From an uncultured Nitrososphaerales archaeon (lineage in GTDB: Archaea; Thermoproteota; Nitrososphaeria; Nitrososphaerales; Nitrososphaeraceae): 64,000 nt of DNA. A program made the position numbers and the translations under genes. The notes below the pieces were generated by a model. The model was not told the origin of the DNA, ran no database searches, and saw only the letters and a program-made list of their open reading frames with translations. Positions 3,824 to 58,831 of the stretch are shown one piece after another (within the stretch, counting starts at the first letter, position 1; each line of letters opens with the position of its first letter). The stretch covers positions 32,439 to 96,438 of the forward strand of contig CAVPXM010000060.1 of the NCBI GenBank assembly GCA_963709405.1, written 5' to 3'.

Positions 3824-4300
3824 ATGGATCCTTTAATGCAAGAAAACATACTCAACAAGAGACATAATAATTTGTTAGATATGTTTGAAAGAGACGTCGC
3901 CCCATGCGACAAGATCTCTGAACTTTCAATGGTAATGACTCCAGTAGGTATCATCTCTTCGATCTTAGTTCCACTCTTGTTATACCGGCTTTTAGTTCAT
4001 GGTAATCCATATACTGCTATTACTGTTTTTCCATATTTTTATTTGGTCGTCGGTGGCATATTGACTACGTTGCTGTTAACTAGATCAGCCATAGTATATG
4101 CTGATCACAAGAAACATCAAATATCTAGGACAATATATCGACCTATTACCGGTTTTTGTATGTGTGATCTTAGTATGCTTCGGTCGCATACAAAAAAAGT
4201 GGAAGGAGCTAGAACAATTGGAGAAAGAATAAGATATGTAAAACTTGTAAACTATTATACTGACAAAATCATACGAGAGCGGGACATCATAAATAAGTAA
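3824..4300 (+). CDS. Hypothetical 2-TM membrane protein with CxC motif
   Basis: 158-aa ORF, two TM segments, FCMCDL motif. Confidence 0.65.
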   Translation: MDPLMQENILNKRHNNLLDMFERDVAPCDKISELSMVMTPVGIISSILVPLLLYRLLVHGNPYTAITVFPYFYLVVGGILTTLLLTRSAIVYADHKKHQISRTIYRPITGFCMCDLSMLRSHTKKVEGARTIGERIRYVKLVNYYTDKIIRERDIINK

Positions 4301-4406
4301 CGATAGTCTGATATCTGGCTTTTCTTCAGTTAACTTGATCCTTGTATGCTTAAGTATGCTAATTTACATTTTAGTGCCAAGTTTGCATAAGGAGTAGATA
4401 TCAGTT

Positions 4407-4652
4407 TTGAACGACGACCTTAATAAATCGGCCAAGATGAGTGTAACAAAAATATTTGCATTATCCACACTCCTTGCAGTTATTATTACAGTTCCTGCTA
4501 TAGTTCTAACGTTACTGCTTCTTTATGTCGCAAAATTGAATACTGTAACGACAATGATAATAGGTATTTTGACGTTTCTTGCTACCATGGGTTTTGGATT
4601 CAAGATTTCTAAACGGCTGATCCCCGGTGATAAGAGTACTATAGATATGTGA
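4407..4652 (+). CDS. Small 2-TM membrane protein
   Basis: Two hydrophobic helices; start may be ATG 4437. Confidence 0.65.
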   Translation: MNDDLNKSAKMSVTKIFALSTLLAVIITVPAIVLTLLLLYVAKLNTVTTMIIGILTFLATMGFGFKISKRLIPGDKSTIDM

Positions 4653-10486: not shown

Positions 10487-10500
10487 TTAGGCACACCTAA
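10487..10500. promoter_or_regulatory. TTAGG-N4-CCTAA operator (DtxR/MntR-like) between TATA box and hydantoinase start
   Basis: TTAGGCACACCTAA, downstream of CGTTTAAATA (10458-10467). Confidence 0.6.
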
Positions 10501-10511
10501 CGGTCTTTGGT

Positions 10512-12639
10512 ATGAGTAAAAGAATAAGAGTTGGAATTGATGTCGGAGGAACATTTACTAAGGCTGTTGCATTAGACATTTCTAATTGCAGCATTATTGG
10601 TAAAGTGACTGTACCAACTACGCATGGGTCTGAGGAAGGAGTATCATCAGGCATCTTAATGGCACTCAAGACCCTCTTGAATAAGTGGAATCTGCAGCAT
10701 TGTCAAATCGAATTAATCGCTCATAGTACGACTCAAGCAGTTAATGCGTTGTTGGAGGGAGATACTGCGAAAGTTGGAATCATAGGCATGGGGGTAGGAT
10801 TAGAAAAATCTAATATCATAAGACGCACAAACATCCATAATATAAAATTAGCTTCACATAAATATCTTCAAACGTTCTATCGATTTTTAGATACCTCGAA
10901 ATATTTAGAAGAAAAGGACGTAATGTCAGCAATCGACCAGCTTAAACAGGAGGGGGCAGAGGTGCTTGTGGTAAGCGAAGCATATGGTGTGGATGACCCT
11001 AGCAACGAACTTTTCGTTATGAAAAAATCTGATATTCCATCAACTGCAGGTCATGAACTCACTGGGATCTATGGACTTGAGATCCGGACATTGACTGCTG
11101 CTATCAATGCTAGTATCTTACCGAAAGCTATGAATACAGCAAGGTTTGTTGAGTCAGCAGTACACAATGAAAACATTGTAGCTCCTATTATGTTGATGAA
11201 GGGCGATGGAGGAGTTACCGACATGCAAACATTTCGAAATAAACCCATCCTTACGATTCTCTCTGGACCGGCGAGCAAGCGTAGCAGGCGCGTTGCTCCA
11301 CCTATCAGTTCTAGATGGAATATTTATTGAAGTAGGAGGTACATCTACTAATATTTGCGTTATAAAGGGAGGCAGACCAGAAATCAACTACGTAACGATA
11401 ATGGAACATCCGACTTGTATTCGTTCACTGGATGTTAGAGTTGCTGGCGTAGCAGGGGGCTCTCTAATACGTTGGTCAGGAAGAAAAATAACCGATGTTG
11501 GTCCCCGTTCAGCACACATCGCGAATCTGCCATATTCCTGTTTTGCAAATCCTGAAGAGTTAGAGAATGGCCAGATAATTACATTTAGACCTAAGGATGG
11601 CGATCCAATTGATTACGTCGCAATAGAGACGGGTGGTTCGAATCGTTATGCTATTACTAATACTTGCGCAGCGAACGCGTTGGGATTGATTCCTGATGAA
11701 GATTACGCAAAAGGTAATCAAAGATCTGCTAATATCGCCTTATCAATACTAGCTCGGAGGATGGGCATGGAGATGAAAGATGTGGCAGAGTCAATCCTCG
11801 AGATTTCGGCCAAAAAAATCATCAGGATAATGGAACCCATGTTAAGAGCATACAATCTGAAATCAGATAGTATTTCGTTAGTTGGCGGGGGTGGCGGTGC
11901 ATCTGTTCTAGTCCCATATTTAGCTCGAAAACTTCGATTACCGTTTCAAATTGCAGAAAACGCAGAGGTAATATCATCCATAGGGGTTGCTTCAGCCATG
12001 ATCAGGGAAGAACGTGAAAGAACTATAAATAATCCTAATTCCAGTGATGTTACTTCGTTAGCTGAAGAAGTGAAAAAGTTAGCGCTTGATAGAGGGGTTT
12101 CCCCTGAATCGCTTGTTATCGAATCAGAATTTATTAGTGAAAGATCCGTACTGCGTGCGATTGCTACGGGTAATGTGATTCTAGACATTGGTTCATCAAA
12201 TACAGAAGAAATCGATGAAGAACAGGCCCGAATATTAGCATGTGAGTTATTTGGTATTAATCAAGGCGTCCAAAAGATATATGACATGAAGAATTATCAC
12301 GTCTTTGCCTGCGAAATCAACAAAAAAAAGTTGTTCCTAAAATCGAAAAGGAGACCTGCTCTAGTGCTTGATAACCATGGCCGTGTAAAATTGTCAATAG
12401 ATAACGCCTCTATTTTTAATGGAAGTCCCAAGGATGTCGCTGATAAAATAGAGAGTTTACTTGAACAATCACAAGAACCGGCAAATGATGGAAAACTAGC
12501 TCCTCAGGTTCATCTACTGGATGGCACCAAAATTGTCGATTTCTCAAGTTTAACTTCCAGAGATCACGTGTCAAAGGCGATACGAGATGAATTAGATAAA
12601 TCTACCAGTATTCAGGTTGTAGCCATTATAAAGCTATAG
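10512..12639 (+). CDS. Hydantoinase A/5-oxoprolinase family protein (frameshift near 11275)
   Basis: VGIDVGGTFTKAV, HSTTQAVNALLEG, LSGPAS/VAGA, EVGGTSTN, VGPRSA across ORFs 10512..11330 and 11206..12639. Confidence 0.88.
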
Positions 12640-25474: not shown

Positions 25475-25807
25475 TCACCTCTTTATAAGCTGTAATGCCA
25501 AACCCTGCTGATTTAAGTTAACCTCTAACGACTTTATCTGACTCCGATAATAAAGGATTTTCTTACCTTTACTATCAAATCTAATTTTTTCAATTGAAAT
25601 TAGACCAGTATTGTATAATTTTTGAATTTTTCTATATGTGGAACTCAAAGGCAACTTGTATTCAGAGCAGATTTCAGACGCCGTTTTCGATGAATTCATA
25701 GTAGATGAGATTATACTATAAGTGACCTTATCAGCTATCTCTCTTAACATACGAAGGACATTAGGGTCGTCATATGGAGAATGGTTAGTTTGGTCAATCA
25801 TGTTCAT
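25475..25807 (-). CDS. ArsR-like winged-helix transcriptional regulator
   Basis: KTASEICSEYKLPLSSTYRKIQKLYNTGLI...GKKILYYRS. Confidence 0.85.
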   Translation of the reverse strand: MNMIDQTNHSPYDDPNVLRMLREIADKVTYSIISSTMNSSKTASEICSEYKLPLSSTYRKIQKLYNTGLISIEKIRFDSKGKKILYYRSQIKSLEVNLNQQGLALQLIKR

Positions 25808-25813
25808 ATCTAG

Positions 25814-25851
25814 TTAGGCTACACTAATTAGGTATACCTAATATTTAAACG
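25814..25851 (-). promoter_or_regulatory. TATA box plus two tandem TTAGG-N4-CCTAA operators
   Basis: TTAGGCTACACTAA (25814-27), TTAGGTATACCTAA (25828-41), then TATTTAAACG. Confidence 0.75.
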
Positions 25852-26216
25852 GTGTACCGATTGCAATAGACTACGAACGACTGACTCATTCGTATTGCTA
25901 GGTACGACTCATCAGGAAGATTTCCAACGGTTTGTCCATTTATGGAAGCGATCGATATAGTTAGTCAAGTTCAATAGGTCTAGATGTCTGGATACATATG
26001 CCCTACTTGTTAGTTCACTAGGAATTCAGACGAGTCACGGTAAAAGTTCATAATAACGCTACGAAGTTCGGGATTATGCAGTGGTTGTTGGCAGAGGGAA
26101 AATATAGAATTTATCGGGGGATATCTTAGTTCAGCAGGAACATCCAACTCAAGACTTTACTATGACTTAAGACCACTTGCGCTAATACGTTCCGTGTATC
26201 CATGCCCAACGAGAAC

Positions 26217-28930
26217 CTACTTTTTATTTCTTTCAAGATCAGCCATTGATTTTCTTGCGCTCTCGATTGCCTTCTTTCTTCTTGGTTGAATTACTAATAT
26301 ATATACTGAACCTATGGTATAAATTGCCAATAAGATAAGCTGAGCAACTACTGATTCAAGGGTGGGATGAATTCCTGTCATTTCTGCCAGATTTATGTCA
26401 AGTCTTGGAACAACTCCTATAAGACTTGTCGTTGAGATATACCCAATTTCTTGAAATGAACGTATTGCATTACCCATGAATGCTATAGACATGTAGGCTC
26501 CAACTCCCATCGTCAAACCGAATAGTAGACGAAGGGGCAATTTTCTACCCAATCTTCGAATGAGAAATACTATCCCAATTATTACTGCAAGACCTGAAAT
26601 AAACCCTGCAATCACATACCATTCCATATATTTTGCAAAAGACAACATTGCTTGATAAAATAGGACGGTTTCAAACCCCTCCCTATAAACAGTAAAGAAG
26701 GAAAGCATAACAAAAACTATGACACTACCAGTAGTAGTTGCCTTCCACACTTTTGCCTTTACAAATTCTATCCATTTTTTAGTTTCAATTTTATTTAGAA
26801 CCCAGAAGCTGACCCAGAATAAAATTGCCACTGCAGAAATACCAGCAACTGCTTCGATAATTTCCCTGTTAGCTCCTGAGACTTCTATAATGTATTGAGC
26901 AACAGACCACGTTACGGCGGTTGCTACAATTGAGATAATTATACCGTAATAGACGTGTTTCTTGAATCGATAATTCCTAGACGCTTCCAAATATGTTAGA
27001 ATGGCTCCTATAATAAGTGCGGATTCCAATCCCTCCCTAAATATTATTGAAAATGAAGTCGAGAAGGCGATACCTGGCGCTACTACACCAGTTCCTGAAA
27101 CCAGCCTCTCGGATTCATCGAGACCCTGTTTGATCTCGAATACCTTACTCTGAACTTTATCATAAGGCACTTTGGTCTGAATTAGATTGCGTAGCTCGGC
27201 AAATTTTATTTCCATATCCAATGTGAAGTCCGGGTTAATTGGTCTTAATGGAATCTCTACGCTTTCGTAGTTATCCAAGTATGCAGAGCGCGATGTCGAA
27301 AATGCTTCTTCATAATTACCTTTTTTATATGTCGAAAGCATATCATTCAACTTCGATCCAATCTGATCTACATCGTTTCGAACAATTCCCTTCGAGGATT
27401 CATCAGCTTGTCCGATACTTCGTCGATCTCCAGTATATACTCCAAATCCTTTACTAAGAGCTTGAATGTCAGCAAAGCCCTTGCCCTTCGTTTCAATAGT
27501 ACCAGCAGATGAAACCAACTGCGTTGACAATTCATTTTTAGAAGAGCTGCCCGCAGATAGCGCTGTTGTCGTTGTCGTAATCACGGACTTGCTTCTTAGT
27601 AGAGATTCTGCCTTGTCCAAATTCACACGTATTCCGTTAATGAAAGCAACTATCTCGCTAGGATGTGCTTTCTTATTAAGCATATCTCTAAGATGTTCTC
27701 TCAATGCCAACTCTATGTCGATCTTCAGTTTATGATCATACTTGTCAATTGGACGTTCAAGATATTCAAAATTATCCAAATATGCAGTAACAACCGTATC
27801 ATCGGCCTGACCATAGTTTCCAGCCTTGACATACGCAATCGCACTCTTAAGATCATTTTGTATGGTCGAAAAATACGTTGCATCTTCATCTGTGGCAGGA
27901 GTGTTGTATGTTGTAGTAGTATTTCTATTGCTGTTAGCACTAATACTGCCCGTATAATTACGAGCTGACGATAATTCCTGTGTTAGATCGCTTTCAAGCT
28001 CGGAGAAGAGTCTCGAAACTGTTTGCTTATCCGATCTTTTTCCCATGTAATTTATTAGCTGGTTATACGCTAGTTTAATTTCAGAGTTCTTGTTATTACT
28101 TAAAGAATTTGATATTTTCCCATAGTTTGCTTGCGATACCTGAATCAGACCTAATGCATTTTGATAATCAATATTATCAACGTTTTTTTTGGCAATGTTT
28201 GTGTTATAATTATTTACGCTACTCACAGAGGATCCTAGTCCTCCTGCTTTGACACTATTTGATTGAGATAAACTGAGATTGGATAGTTGGTAAGACCTGT
28301 TCGCATCGTTCAATAAGAGAGCAGCGGTTTGCGCAAGCATCATGTCTCTCTTATCGGTCTTAAGTATCGGATTTAATATTTGATTGTAAACATTAGTCAA
28401 ATCATTTCTACTAACTATCAAGTCTCTCTTCACGGTAACTGGATCTCCGGTTTTTATCATAAACGTGATATCGGTCAACCCTGATTCAAGCTTCTTGGCT
28501 GAATTGGCGTACCCTGCCTTCTCAAGAATGTTTTTTATCGAAGGAAATATGACAGTATGCGTAATGTATGAATGAGCAAATGCCATATTGCTATCCCCGT
28601 TTGCTAGGCTTCGCTCAGTCAACATTAGCTGCCGTCCTAATCCTTTCGAAATTGGTCATCAAGATTATCGCATCAGTATCATTAACTTTATCCATTAATC
28701 TCTCTGTAACCGAACCAGCAATTGCCGCAGGCGATAATAGGACCGGCTCCCATAACATTACGTCGTACAAGCTGGGCAAAGACCAGATTTTTAGATAGAA
28801 GGTAAACTGTCATAACATTTGCTAATAATAACAAGACAAGTATTGTGGCAGTTATCTGTGATATTCGATTTTGACTCGAGTTCTTCTTTTTACCTGCTAG
28901 CATAGTTTTTTTCTCCATCTTTCCTATCAT
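26217..28930 (-). CDS. FTR1-family iron permease with large extracellular helical region (N-terminus frameshifted)
   Basis: REGLE and REGFE (REGxE) motifs, 7-TM C-terminal domain, two AYLDN[FY]E repeats; signal segment in ORF 28688..28930. Confidence 0.92.
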
Positions 28931-29028
28931 TCAAGCCTCCACTCGCATGCTATCACTATAAATCACTATATTGATAATACTGGATTTCAGCAACTCTAGT
29001 GTCAACACCCCTTATAAAGTCTATCACA

Positions 29029-29046
29029 ATTCTCGAGATTGAGAAT
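29029..29046. promoter_or_regulatory. ATTCTC-N6-GAGAAT palindrome upstream of the FTR1 TATA box
   Basis: ATTCTC GAGATT GAGAAT; TTTATAAG at 29018-29011 on the minus strand. Confidence 0.7.
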
Positions 29047-29374
29047 GACGTGATATGATGAGTGCAGATCTGTTGGGCTGGTATCACATTTTATACTGGC
29101 GTTATTCCCAAGTCAACAATAAACACTAAATGTTAGTAATAATGGTAATACCAAATGCAGTTGGATCCCATTTTGCTCAGTAAGTTTTTAAAGATATAAA
29201 TCTTTGTACTAAAAGTTGAGTGGTTGCACGGTATTCCTGAACTCTAAAGAAATGGAGATCGATTAGCTATATCGTTATAGCATAGTACCAACACAAAAAG
29301 GGAAGATGACAGCAGAACGTGGTATAATTAGGAAGCATTAAGAGTAATCAATTCTAACTCATACAGGACGGCCC

Positions 29375-29652: not shown

Positions 29653-30138
29653 TTATCGTATCTCCAATTTGGCAAGAATATCTTCTATATTCTGTTCGTC
29701 TTCGAGCTCAGCATCGAGCAGATCCAAGGCAAGATTGTAGGATGCATTATCCTTGTCTTTCGTACTGTTAGCCAAGTCATTATACAATTTTATTATGACC
29801 CTTTCAAATTCTAAAGCCTTCTCAAGTGAGCTTCGCAAAGTCAAATATCTAGATGGCTGTAGTTTCCCCAAACCGCTGTCTTGCTCCCACTGAGCAGGAT
29901 CATCGTTAGGAGTAACCTCAAGCTGCATTAATCTAAATGCCACCTTCTTTGAATGTCCTATTTCTTCCTTTGCTCGTTCTTCAAAGAATTTTTGTTCCAA
30001 CACGCCCAAACCTTCGATATTCTGCGAGATATACCAAAAGTAATGAAAAGTTGAAAGCTCGGCGCCATATGCTTTCTTTAACATCTGGACAGTACCTTCG
30101 ATACCAGAGCCAGATATCTCTTTAGCCATCTTACCCAT
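29653..30138 (-). CDS. Ferritin-like/Dps-like di-iron protein
   Basis: LKKAYGAELSTFHY, EERAKEEIGH, ALEFERVIIKLY, AELEDE four-helix carboxylate pattern; own TATA at 30160-30168. Confidence 0.85.
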   Translation of the reverse strand: MGKMAKEISGSGIEGTVQMLKKAYGAELSTFHYFWYISQNIEGLGVLEQKFFEERAKEEIGHSKKVAFRLMQLEVTPNDDPAQWEQDSGLGKLQPSRYLTLRSSLEKALEFERVIIKLYNDLANSTKDKDNASYNLALDLLDAELEDEQNIEDILAKLEIR

Positions 30139-30238
30139 GAATAAATTCCATCTCACAAGTTATTTAAACATTGTCGAAGGGGATCACATTTCACGATAGT
30201 ATGCAAAATACCTAGATTTATAGTGCAGATGGAATCCT

Positions 30239-30493
30239 CTATTCGCTAATGTTTTTATCTTTTCTAGTATTCGGAAGCTCTAAGCCGATTACGCCCATCA
30301 TAGAATCACCTATTGGCTCAAATAGTATTCTTAGAGATTCATTGTCATAAAATCTGGCAATTTCACTTAGTTTAGATTCTATCTTTTTTTGCTCTATCTT
30401 TAAAAGAACATATCTAGCTATTAAGGCCTTTACTTCGTCTGCCTTATCTTCTGGTATCGCATGTTTATTGTTGTTATTACTTTTAGAAGACAT
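30239..30493 (-). CDS. Hypothetical coiled-coil protein
   Basis: 84-aa ATG ORF, co-oriented with 30542..30748 and the ferritin gene. Confidence 0.6.
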   Translation of the reverse strand: MSSKSNNNNKHAIPEDKADEVKALIARYVLLKIEQKKIESKLSEIARFYDNESLRILFEPIGDSMMGVIGLELPNTRKDKNISE

Positions 30494-30541
30494 TACAGTA
30501 TTTCGTTATCTACGTCTGCACAACACATCTTTAATTAATTA

Positions 30542-30748
30542 TTATGGCGCGTTCTTCAATATAGTTACAGGCCCATATCTAACCTGAGTTTCATTCAATG
30601 CATATAACATCTGTTCTAAGGGATCTAGTATACCATCGGTATTCTCACATATAAATATCATAGAGTTATCTTCATCAAATTCTAGCCGATCCTGTTCCTC
30701 ACACCTCTCACTTTTGTTTAAATGAAGAAGTTCTTGTTGTGAAATCAT
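30542..30748 (-). CDS. Small acidic hypothetical protein
   Basis: 68 aa; ATG lies about 28 nt after a TATA box, consistent with a leaderless transcript. Confidence 0.65.
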   Translation of the reverse strand: MISQQELLHLNKSERCEEQDRLEFDEDNSMIFICENTDGILDPLEQMLYALNETQVRYGPVTILKNAP

Positions 30749-30785
30749 TAGGTGCCCCTAATTAGGGGCGTCTAATATTTAAACG
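30748..30785 (-). promoter_or_regulatory. TATA box plus two tandem TTAGG-N4-CCTAA operators
   Basis: TTAGGTGCCCCTAA (30748-61), TTAGGGGCGTCTAA (30762-75), then TATTTAAACG; same layout as 25814-25851. Confidence 0.75.
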
Positions 30786-30798
30786 ATCTTGTTCTCTT

Positions 30799-34093: not shown

Positions 34094-34111
34094 ATTCTCA
34101 GACTTGAGAGT
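34094..34111. promoter_or_regulatory. ATTCTC-N6-GAGAGT palindrome variant
   Basis: One mismatch to consensus; TTAATTAT follows after 11 nt on the minus strand. Confidence 0.5.
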
Positions 34112-55012: not shown

Positions 55013-55597
55013 TTATTTGGTAATAATGCTGTTAGCCGGTGTAGCTTTCTCTACAGTAGGAGGAGGAAGGACTATTAACTGTCCAGCCATTGTAGGTTGA
55101 TGATATCTACAATAGAATCTGAATACACCAGGATCTTCTGCAGTGAACGTGACTGTAGTATTTTGTAGAGGCCCTACATCCTTATTTATATTATATGGTG
55201 CTCCCATCGTTAATGTATGTCTGTCACTTGGGTCAAGATTATAGAAGTGTATAGTTACCGCATCACCCTCATTTGCCCCCAATACTGAATGGGAATATAC
55301 ATCTCCCGGAATGCCGAGTTTTGTTTCATTGATTCCTTCCATTTCTTCAGAGAATACGTAAAACGACTTTTTATTACCCAAATCCGCAGTGGATGCCAAC
55401 ATTGCATTTGTACCATTATTATTAGTAGTAGTTGTTCCATTTTGAGAGGACATATTCATTGATACTGCTGGCGGGGAGGTCTGGGCGTTTACTTGTGGCA
55501 ATATTACACTAATAGAAGAGGTCAAGAGTAACATTACGATAGCTGAAGCAGAAATCGTTATTGTTGACCTGGTTGAAAATATTGATTTTCGTTCCAT
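55013..55597 (-). CDS. Secreted cupredoxin (type-1 copper protein)
   Basis: Signal peptide; HTLT...FYCRYHQPTMAGQLIV. Start set to ATG 55597, about 27 nt after TTAAATA. Confidence 0.9.
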   Translation of the reverse strand: MERKSIFSTRSTITISASAIVMLLLTSSISVILPQVNAQTSPPAVSMNMSSQNGTTTTNNNGTNAMLASTADLGNKKSFYVFSEEMEGINETKLGIPGDVYSHSVLGANEGDAVTIHFYNLDPSDRHTLTMGAPYNINKDVGPLQNTTVTFTAEDPGVFRFYCRYHQPTMAGQLIVLPPPTVEKATPANSIITK

Positions 55598-55642
55598 TTT
55601 CTTGATATAATCGGCTTCCATCAGTATTTAATCGAATACTCA

Positions 55643-55660
55643 ATTCTCTTTTTTGAGAAT
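55643..55660. promoter_or_regulatory. ATTCTC-N6-GAGAAT palindrome upstream of the cupredoxin TATA box
   Basis: ATTCTC TTTTTT GAGAAT; TTAAATA follows after 11 nt on the minus strand. Confidence 0.7.
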
Positions 55661-58204: not shown

Positions 58205-58763
58205 TTAAGGCGCAGACAGAATTTTTTCAGCCCGTTCTAGATTGATATTAATTTTGCTAATCAGTGTTTGAATATCACCTAATGGAGCTTTATGTTTTAT
58301 TTGTTGCCTCAGATCTCCTCTTATCATGAATTCAGTGTTCTGTTTTAAAGTTTTATCATGTTGCTGCAACGGTCCTTCAACGAACTCAAAGTTATCTAGA
58401 TACGCTTTAGCCGCAAGAGTCAAGGCACCTGTATAATTCTGCTTTTGATAAGCGCCAAGAGTTTGGTTTAAAAGCTGTTGTACGTTCGAAATATATTGAA
58501 GTGTCTTGCTATTTGAATCAGTCCTTGATCCAGTCACTGAGGAACTCCCATTTTGACTTTCATTCTTTGTTACGAAATTGTTACTTTTAGTAACATTTGC
58601 TCCATTACCTGCTGCCAACTGCCAATACTTTAGAATTATTTGAGGCAGATATCAATAATATCTGTGATAGCGAAGATGTACAGATCAATACTGTGAAGGC
58701 GATTATTGTAAATCCTATTATTGCTCTATCGCTGTGTGTTGGTATGTTAAATCGATCTTTCAT
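58205..58763 (-). CDS. Secreted protein consisting of one FTR1-type extracellular helical repeat (frameshift near 58620)
   Basis: MKDRFNIP...IGFTIIAFTVL signal; AYLDNFEFVEGPL..HDK.LK..E..IR..LR matches the FTR1 repeats. Confidence 0.8.
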
Positions 58764-58813
58764 CGTTTAAATCCCCTGAAGATAATTGAAAAAGGGATTT
58801 ATTCTAATCGATG

Positions 58814-58831
58814 ATTCTCAATAATGAGATT
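58814..58831. promoter_or_regulatory. ATTCTC-N6-GAGATT palindrome variant
   Basis: One mismatch to consensus; ATAAAT follows after 11 nt on the minus strand; ATG at 58763. Confidence 0.65.

Follow-up and report, generated by a model that had tools for sequence, protein, structure and literature searches.

A putative two-element iron-uptake regulon with a candidate DtxR-repressed winged-helix activator in ammonia-oxidising archaea

How is an iron permease gene controlled when its promoter lacks the presumptive iron-repressor box carried by the small regulator gene beside it? This question is raised by a stretch of 64,000 nucleotides (the window) from an archaeal genome of 4.83 Mb, 37% GC and 100 contigs (G000), in which the detection of amoA identifies the source as an ammonia-oxidising archaeon (AOA), namely a soil AOA of a Nitrososphaeraceae-like family. 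AOA drive nitrification in soil and ocean, and to our knowledge almost nothing is known about their transcription regulation and iron uptake. On the minus strand of the window, the gene of an iron permease of the FTR1 family, extended at its N-terminus by a long series of repeats (26217..28930; PF03239, E 5.2e-20), is followed by that of a 110-residue winged helix-turn-helix (wHTH) protein, an ArsR/Phr-like candidate activator taken from the list of open reading frames (ORFs; 25475..25807, minus strand). An earlier note on this DNA had proposed a cascade in which a metal repressor controls the wHTH gene through TTAGG boxes and the wHTH protein in turn activates FTR1 and other genes through an ATTCTC palindrome. 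From the comparison of both elements across related genomes, a two-element iron-uptake regulon with a DtxR-repressed wHTH activator emerges as a whole explanation that we hold to be somewhat better than an even proposition. It comes down to two short DNA sites and two small proteins, each of them directly testable.

The double TTAGG box and its candidate repressor

Between the TATA box of the wHTH gene (TTTAAATA, 25843..25850, minus strand, located by sequence reading) and its start codon lie two adjacent TTAGG-N4-CCTAA boxes (25814..25841), which on the basis of pattern search and conservation we propose as an operator for two DtxR-type dimers. The first, TTAGGTATACCTAA at 25841-25828 on the minus strand, adjoins the TATA box and is an exact match; the second, TTAGTGTAGCCTAA at 25827-25814 on the same strand, has one mismatch and is followed after 6 nt by the ATG. 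Archaeal repressors typically act in this interval, and since the two 14-bp boxes occupy the whole of it, the expected initiation site of the wHTH gene is covered.

Our family comparison encompassed 61 genomes, with genera coded g1, g2 and so on, and was complemented by an order-wide sample of 71 genomes. Orthologs of the wHTH protein, called by a protein match at E<=1e-10, are present in 41 of the 61 family genomes, and the promoters of 34 ortholog loci from 14 genera (one of them, L089, from the unpublished genome G054) were compared. A double box with at most one mismatch per box is found within 75 bp upstream of the ATG at 30 of these loci and at least one box at 33, and the upstream regions keep the string cgTTTAAATA, followed by TTAGG. 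The arrangement of two boxes in a repressor position, which the earlier note had pointed out for this one gene, is thereby a feature of the family, and by this conservation the wHTH gene is to be seen as a conserved target of the TTAGG box. The weight of the motif derives from its position and conservation and not from its frequency: if two mismatches are allowed, it is not enriched in the window (31 matches versus 30.6 expected).

Which protein would read this box? A 14-bp consensus for a single IdeR/DtxR dimer has been proposed as TTAGGNNNNCCTAA, and one dimer was shown to bind such a half operator (PMC8464063). TTAGG-N4-CCTAA is identical to this consensus, which supports the attribution of the motif to a metal repressor in the earlier note. 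In the haloarchaeon Haloferax volcanii, the DtxR-family protein TroR binds the semi-palindromic TTTAGGC-N3-CCTAAA, often in tandem, and represses the regulator gene idr (PMC10783522). The source genome encodes two DtxR-family proteins (PF02742), on contigs C55 (377441-377641, 73.4 bits) and C21 (14264-14446, 54 bits), and the best sequence relatives in the PDB are SloR, MntR, DtxR and IdeR. The 157-residue C55 protein has orthologs in all five relatives tested, with 68-81% identity, and its helix-turn-helix reads T-Q-P-S-V-V-Q, that is, T-x-P-S-x-x-Q. These residues appear to correspond to the DNA contacts of IdeR, given as S37, P39, T40 and Q43 in PMC8464063, in a mapping made by eye without a tool alignment; the C21 protein has a K at the last of these positions, like MntR in the alignment. 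The C55 protein is our most likely candidate for the repressor at the TTAGG box.

The genomic distribution of the box provides further clues. At 10 of the 34 wHTH loci (g2, g7, g11, g17, g18), the ortholog of this DtxR gene comes next after the wHTH gene in the same orientation, a pairing that the earlier note had missed; it suggests that the double box originally served the two genes as a common operator. In the genus of the source organism this wHTH-DtxR pair is split, and the DtxR gene (L022, G000:C55:375941-379141; gene at 1477-1950 of L022, minus strand) stands alone beside an integrase-type transposase gene, with no TTAGG box. Nor is there a box upstream of DtxR in genomes without the wHTH gene (6 loci in 5 genomes), so that the box travels with the wHTH gene and not with DtxR. 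In G014, it is FTR1 that is directly followed by DtxR.

The box is also found between TATA box and ATG at metal-uptake promoters. Among 30 family homologs of FTR1, one of them cut by a contig end and one (L046) from the unpublished G054, 29 promoters are readable, and 21 of these carry it; the same arrangement occurs at ZIP transporter genes in G021 and G023. As boxes are retained at FTR1 or ZIP promoters in G014, G044 and G021, genomes that have no wHTH ortholog, their distribution argues against the wHTH protein as their binder. Taking motif identity and position together, the TTAGG element is very probably the operator of an iron-loaded DtxR-family repressor, and the ZIP genes belong, by their promoters, to the same regulon in some genera. 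The ZIP boxes are double in L083 (G023:C89) and L108 (G021:C184), and the G023 promoter has the ATTCTC palindrome in addition.

Two observations on the surroundings of the wHTH promoter may be added. In the spacer between the FTR1 stop codon and this promoter (25957-26001), several insertions and deletions exist between public sequencing runs; none of the differences listed falls into the 28-bp double box, even for the run X17, which is about 7% divergent. Furthermore, in genera g18, g11, g7 and g17 the wHTH gene is preceded, at a distance of about 250 bp, by a second promoter with TTAGG boxes (L087:1210-1460, L095:1182-1456, L009:1209-1469 and, oriented, L010 1071-1461), in three of the four genera together with the ATTCTC palindrome, and with a short conserved TTGGCAT block. 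In these four genera no ORF follows the distal promoter and conservation between the two promoters is patchy; it may drive an iron-responsive leader or a small RNA. The window does not contain it, its promoter at 30790 being homologous to the distal one only in the boxes.

The ATTCTC palindrome and the genes behind it

What, then, controls FTR1 in the source genome? Its promoter region (28930-29327) holds no match to TTAGG-N4-CCTAA with up to two mismatches. Its TATA box (TTTATAAG, 29011..29018, minus strand, by sequence reading) is preceded at a distance of 10 bp by an ATTCTC-N6-GAGAAT palindrome found by pattern search (ATTCTCGAGATTGAGAAT, 29029..29046), which we propose as an upstream activating site, in keeping with the description of this promoter in the earlier note. 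The TATA octamer is found at the same distance in the FTR1 promoters of four other genomes of the genus, and the palindrome is conserved at FTR1 in genera g1, g11 and g16 and degenerate in g13.

The start of the gene, placed at 28625 in that note, had to be moved to 28930. The assembly splits FTR1 into three ORFs over its first 100 codons through extra letters at 28632 and 28729, both of which are absent in the contigs of all four public runs examined (three DNA studies and one RNA library). Without them, a stop-free frame of 903 residues extends from 28930 to 26217, in line with the 901-912 residues of relatives, so that the breaks must be particular to this assembly. The contigs of the RNA-library run (X17) cover the locus, but belong to a relative that differs at 62 of 905 letters, and extend across the promoters; we did not take them as a sign of transcription. 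ORFs of at least 100 residues span only 56% of the source genome, and further frame breaks are likely. Two RExxE motifs in transmembrane segments are the hallmark of FTR1 permeases, and the translation shows REGLE and REGFE. The N-terminal part of about 500 residues matches no Pfam family and consists of repeats with a conserved AYLDxFE..E.PL block; the repeat unit also occurs in free secreted proteins, in a cupredoxin-like fusion in g13 and in 350-residue proteins in g2. As a guess, such repeat proteins could be involved in extracellular iron handling.

Several counts set the palindrome apart from background. With at most one mismatch, ATTCTC-N6-GAGAAT occurs four times in the window, where 0.28 occurrences are expected and none of 100 shuffles reaches four, and six exact copies exist in the whole genome, compared to about 0.55 estimated from composition. 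For wider searches we used the composite pattern RTTCTC-N6-GAGAAT-N10-WWTWWAW with at most one mismatch, and the reversed pattern as a control. It yields 147 matches in the 61 family genomes, 48 of them exact, versus 31 for the control, and in the 71 genomes of the order 15 exact matches versus none. The loose palindrome, defined by 10 positions with at most one mismatch, is at background level genome-wide (208 versus 206 in the control) and rises above it only in combination with a TATA box or in the neighbourhood of wHTH genes. At all composite sites the palindrome lies upstream of the TATA box, with a constant spacing of 10 bp.

The source genome contains six composite sites, three of which are located within the window. 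Besides FTR1, one serves a cupredoxin gene (55013..55597, minus strand; PF13473, E 1.8e-10), in the promoter of which (55625..55660, minus strand) an exact palindrome (55643-55660) is followed after 10 bp by ATTAAATA (55625-55632); as the first ATG is only 3 nt away from the TATA box, translation is likely to start at the second. The third (58796..58831, minus strand) combines a palindrome with one mismatch (58814-58831), again 10 bp from a TATA-like AATAAATC, and precedes the gene of a free repeat protein (58205..58763, minus strand), a secreted paralog of the N-terminal repeat unit of FTR1 according to BLASTP and the ORF list. This protein matches residues 251-343 of FTR1 with E 6e-17 and a protein encoded on contig C17 with 62% identity (E 4e-27); its frame breaks near 58605-58618, similar to that of FTR1. 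On C17, a composite site (promoter 4044-4104) precedes a pair of a repeat protein (4148-4528) and a plastocyanin, and a TTAGG box follows the TATA box there as well. The remaining sites lie at a cupredoxin gene on C22 and, on C25, at a gene whose product is secreted.

At 13 of 30 motif loci from other genomes (g1, g2, g13, g17), the ORF behind the site has its homolog among these targets. From this conservation we have high confidence that the ATTCTC element is a functional upstream element, and to judge from the genes behind it, its targets form a conserved regulon that comprises FTR1, cupredoxins and proteins resembling the FTR1 N-terminal domain. The fourth palindrome of the window (34094..34111, one mismatch) is a weak candidate, with a poor TATA-like element and the nearest ORF 177 nt away, and fails the composite pattern. 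Three exact palindromes elsewhere in the genome, at C9:6535 and C63:123310 inside long ORFs and at C47:83286 before a ribosomal protein gene, were set aside as chance or unrelated occurrences.

How widely is FTR1 wired in this manner? Of the 29 readable promoters, eight have palindrome and TATA box without a TTAGG box (g1, g11, g16; the site of G004 was taken from the family search with the composite pattern), three combine both elements (g13), and in 18, L046 among them, a TTAGG box downstream of the TATA box is the sole element (g4, g7, g8, g9, g14, g17, g18). The indirect wiring by which the earlier note had distinguished this locus from direct DtxR control thus fits the FTR1 gene of this genome, but not most of the family, 21 of the 29 promoters carrying the TTAGG box. 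Direct control being common, the indirect-only wiring of this genus appears derived; as read from these promoters, a feed-forward loop is the common logic, and in this genus only the cascade is left of it.

The winged-helix protein as reader of the palindrome

Is the wHTH protein the factor that binds the palindrome? In Pfam it attains two sub-threshold matches, to TrmB (E 1.4e-4, 22.1 bits, cut-off 25.6) and to TFIIE_alpha (17.2 bits, cut-off 22.9), and no match to HTH_5/ArsR. An AlphaFold2 model computed with 31 orthologs (pLDDT 89.4) shows three helices and a wing, followed by a beta hairpin extension. Among PDB structures, Foldseek returns PH1932 and Phr as the best matches to this model, followed by SmtB/ArsR-type proteins including SmtB, NolR and HlyU, and the ortholog alignment has no invariant column of Cys or His. 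The protein is further predicted to form a symmetric homodimer via the strand 91-100 and the helix 18-38, with a score of 0.54 as opposed to 0.00 for the best of three controls, 100% agreement of contacts and a partner pLDDT of at least 78. Of proteins with structures solved as pairs, 20 of 30 attain this mark, and of those solved as single chains 1 of 23, counts that are rough owing to the use of an own alignment. The modelled dimer fits a palindromic site, without showing which one.

The connection to this particular palindrome comes from the association of genes and sites. Of the 41 genomes that have the wHTH gene, 19, from nine genera, show a composite site no more than 3.5 kb away from it on the same contig, beside different target genes, where by our own estimate from the overall density of matches about 0.35 such cases would be expected by chance. 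The site follows the two wHTH copies of G019 at 64 and 385 bp and both copies of G070 at 170 bp; in G022 and G060 it lies 830-850 bp after the gene, past DtxR, and in g1, g11 and g13 the proximal site is the FTR1 promoter. The co-occurrence of gene and motif across genomes, to which the earlier note had looked, speaks largely for the link: where an exact site exists, a wHTH match exists as well in 21 of 23 genomes. The 41 genomes with the wHTH gene contain 127 composite matches (22 in the control) and the 20 without it contain 20 (9 in the control). G014, G008 and G021, each with an assembly completeness of about 99%, have neither gene nor site. Even within genus g16, G069 has the wHTH gene and 10 sites, and G021, G049 and G059 have neither. 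The DtxR proteins do not track the motif in this way: the second paralog is present in four of five motif-less genomes, and the first is likewise present in genomes without the motif.

A second line of evidence is provided by another AOA family, f7, in which a profile search with the wHTH protein brings up paralogs whose recognition helix, IPIST.YRR, is a related one. In a subfamily of 118 residues, the palindrome is located at -83 to -87 of the gene's own ATG at four of seven loci, in two genera. At the loci L114, L115, L124 and L127 it stands at the gene's own start without a TTAGG box. Such an arrangement is expected of an autoregulated factor, which the 118-residue paralog probably is, with an input of another kind. 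The loose palindrome occurs 25 times in 83.7 kb around the f7 paralogs, compared to 6.8 +/- 2.2 in dinucleotide shuffles and 5 in the reversed control, and 29 times in 104 kb around the f1 orthologs, compared to 4.8 +/- 2.2 and 6; over the whole of G000 it has a density of 4.3 per 100 kb, the same as in the control. On this association of gene and site, we consider it somewhat more probable than its negation that the wHTH protein binds the ATTCTC palindrome and aids the recruitment of TBP and TFB.

A number of observations weigh against this assignment. Two of the 23 genomes, G023 and G051 (g18), keep exact sites with no wHTH match, none upstream of DtxR either, which is the pattern that the earlier note had named as a refutation; both assemblies are fragmented (430 and 630 contigs), and one of their sites precedes a ZIP transporter gene with a double TTAGG box. 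Conversely, G016, G017, G048, G058 and G066 have a wHTH match and no composite match, and the wHTH-DtxR pair of genus g2 is free of palindromes over 1.5 kb around it. Iron genes cluster, as seen from the three of six sites, plus that at 34094, that fall into the window, and proximity could therefore reflect an iron island. The presence of three cupredoxins among the targets makes a copper-linked signal possible. Finally, since the genomes share ancestry, the counts exaggerate the support, and as the recognition helix SSTYKKI is nearly invariant, covariation with the motif offers no test.

Much of this would be accommodated if another factor, for instance a copper- or redox-responsive one, read the palindrome, and the wHTH protein, though under DtxR control, regulated other genes or modulated DtxR, its frequent partner in transcription: the exact sites of G023 and G051 without a wHTH match, the copper proteins that make up three of the six targets in the source genome, the wHTH-DtxR pair of g2 without a palindrome nearby, and a proximity that is explained by the clustering of iron genes. 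We regard this as unlikely, though as a rival to be taken seriously. It has to be held against the roughly 6-fold enrichment of the palindrome around genes of the wHTH family in two AOA families, including its position around -85 of the paralogs' starts, against the co-occurrence in 21 of 23 genomes, and against the presence of both DtxR paralogs where the motif is missing; also, no other regulator gene was noticed to recur beside the sites, although no systematic search for one was made.

Alternatively, the wHTH protein could bind the palindrome as a repressor or dual regulator and damp the derepressed uptake genes in an incoherent loop. Its closest folds, Phr and ArsR/SmtB, are repressors according to PDB titles and general knowledge, and the palindrome ends only about 3-4 bp from the expected position of the B recognition element (BRE). 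Yet the site is always found upstream of the TATA box, never over or downstream of it, which is where archaeal activators such as Ptr2 and TrmBL1 sit, upstream of BRE and TATA box, and promoters with both elements already have a repressor site downstream, so that we deem this option improbable. Least of all do we expect the wHTH protein to be a simple autorepressor that binds the TTAGG boxes with DtxR uninvolved: the double box at its own promoter and the modelled dimer would agree with this, but the boxes are kept at FTR1 or ZIP promoters of G014, G044 and G021 in the absence of an ortholog, the motif equals the DtxR/IdeR consensus (PMC8464063), and the T-x-P-S-x-x-Q of the C55 DtxR resembles the contact residues of IdeR in our inferred mapping.

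The proposed circuit among known iron systems

The reading that we prefer, with the wHTH protein as a DtxR-repressed activator, translates into the following scenario. With plentiful iron, iron-loaded DtxR on the double box would block initiation and keep the wHTH gene off. When iron is low, DtxR would leave and the wHTH protein would be made, whose homodimer would then bind RTTCTC-N6-GAGAAT at its fixed distance of 10 bp before the TATA box and promote initiation together with TBP and TFB. The genes activated in this way would be those of FTR1, the cupredoxins and the secreted proteins with FTR1 N-terminal repeats. In the genus of the source organism, FTR1 would have lost its direct DtxR box, leaving a plain two-step cascade, and in most relatives DtxR would also act directly, the two elements flanking one TATA box in a coherent feed-forward loop. 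A more general formulation seems to us evenly balanced between true and false: that soil AOA have a dedicated iron-starvation activator in the form of a dimer of an ArsR/Phr-like protein of 110 residues, ancestrally cotranscribed with DtxR and controlled by a double DtxR operator, which reads the palindrome and turns on the uptake genes, and that its family, with the recognition helix S-[ST]-x-Y-[KR]-[KR], has the palindrome as its site in a second AOA family too, with some members autoregulating. If this is true, no iron regulon and no pair of an activator and its site would have been defined in AOA before. The target list of FTR1, cupredoxins and free repeat proteins would define a candidate oxidase-coupled iron uptake system, and the series of promoters across genera, with repressor site only, activator site only or both, would be well suited for studying how archaea combine inputs.

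Two-tier iron cascades are established in bacteria, where Fur controls the sigma factors PvdS and FecI, and DtxR controls RipA in Corynebacterium. The likeness lies in a metal-loaded repressor holding down a second regulator that governs part of the iron stimulon; unlike in these cascades, the second tier proposed here is an archaeal winged-helix activator upstream of BRE and TATA box, and most relatives add direct repression at the same promoter. The structurally closest proteins are Phr of Pyrococcus furiosus (2p4w) and PH1932 (2cwe, 1uly), with Foldseek E-values of 4.5e-4 to 8.5e-4 and query TM-scores of 0.58-0.72, from which the wHTH protein differs by a sequence identity of only 16-20%, by its length of 110 as opposed to 190-198 residues, and by its proposed role in activation instead of repression. 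TrmBL1 of Thermococcales recognizes the TGM motif TATCAC-N5-GTGATA, which is an activator site when upstream of BRE and TATA box. With this system the present one shares a hexamer inverted repeat with a short spacer and, in the wHTH protein, a weak Pfam match to TrmB; it differs in that this match is below the cut-off, that there is no sugar-binding domain, and that motif and regulon are different ones. In oxidase-coupled systems, such as Fet3/Ftr1 in yeast and FtrABCD/EfeUOB in bacteria, an FTR1 permease is paired with an oxidase. Like these, the AOA genes link an FTR1 permease in their regulation to copper proteins, and the cupredoxins could be the oxidase partner. In contrast to them, the AOA permease has an N-terminal repeat domain of about 500 residues, which recurs in free secreted proteins whose genes carry this promoter element as well.

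Half-sites and spacing of the TTAGG boxes are the same as those of the DtxR/IdeR boxes of Actinobacteria (PMC8464063), and tandem sites at iron-uptake genes, together with a DtxR-family protein that represses a regulator gene, have their likeness in the TroR/Idr system of haloarchaea (PMC10783522). In contrast to the DtxR/IdeR case, two 14-bp sites here lie side by side and are not overlapped in a 19-bp operator; unlike in both systems, they abut an archaeal TATA box, and the regulator below is ArsR/Phr-like and not a DtxR paralog. According to PMC10783522, the published survey of archaeal DtxR regulons by Leyn and Rodionov covered Euryarchaeota, Crenarchaeota and Korarchaeota, and not AOA. 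In the literature we searched, no AOA iron regulon, DtxR box or FTR1 promoter element was found, although subscription papers and supplements may differ in this respect. A copper-limitation study of N. viennensis reports different motifs; we did not use it for or against a copper link, and the 251-residue TrmB beside one DtxR in it is another protein. The promoters described here represent a genuine iron regulon of AOA that has apparently gone undescribed, for which wiring as a cascade or as a feed-forward loop is plausible.

Two further promoters of the window carry TTAGG boxes. A second double box (30748-30775), found by pattern search, forms with TTTAAATA at 30777-30784 a promoter of wHTH-like build (30748..30784, minus strand; unit 29653-30785), in which the ATG overlaps the end of the box. 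Downstream on the same strand follow a 68-residue ORF without a Pfam family, an 84-residue ORF and a ferritin/Dps-like gene, located beyond the FTR1 promoter (PF00210, E 2.5e-17); an iron-storage gene under an iron box in repressor position is unexpected. Pattern search and Pfam further point to a single exact box (10487..10500, plus strand), which lies 27 bp after another TTTAAATA and 11 bp before a hydantoinase/oxoprolinase gene. Its sequence is the same as that of the box on C17, and the gene, which has no obvious link to iron, is split into two overlapping ORFs (10512-12639), resembling the breaks in FTR1.

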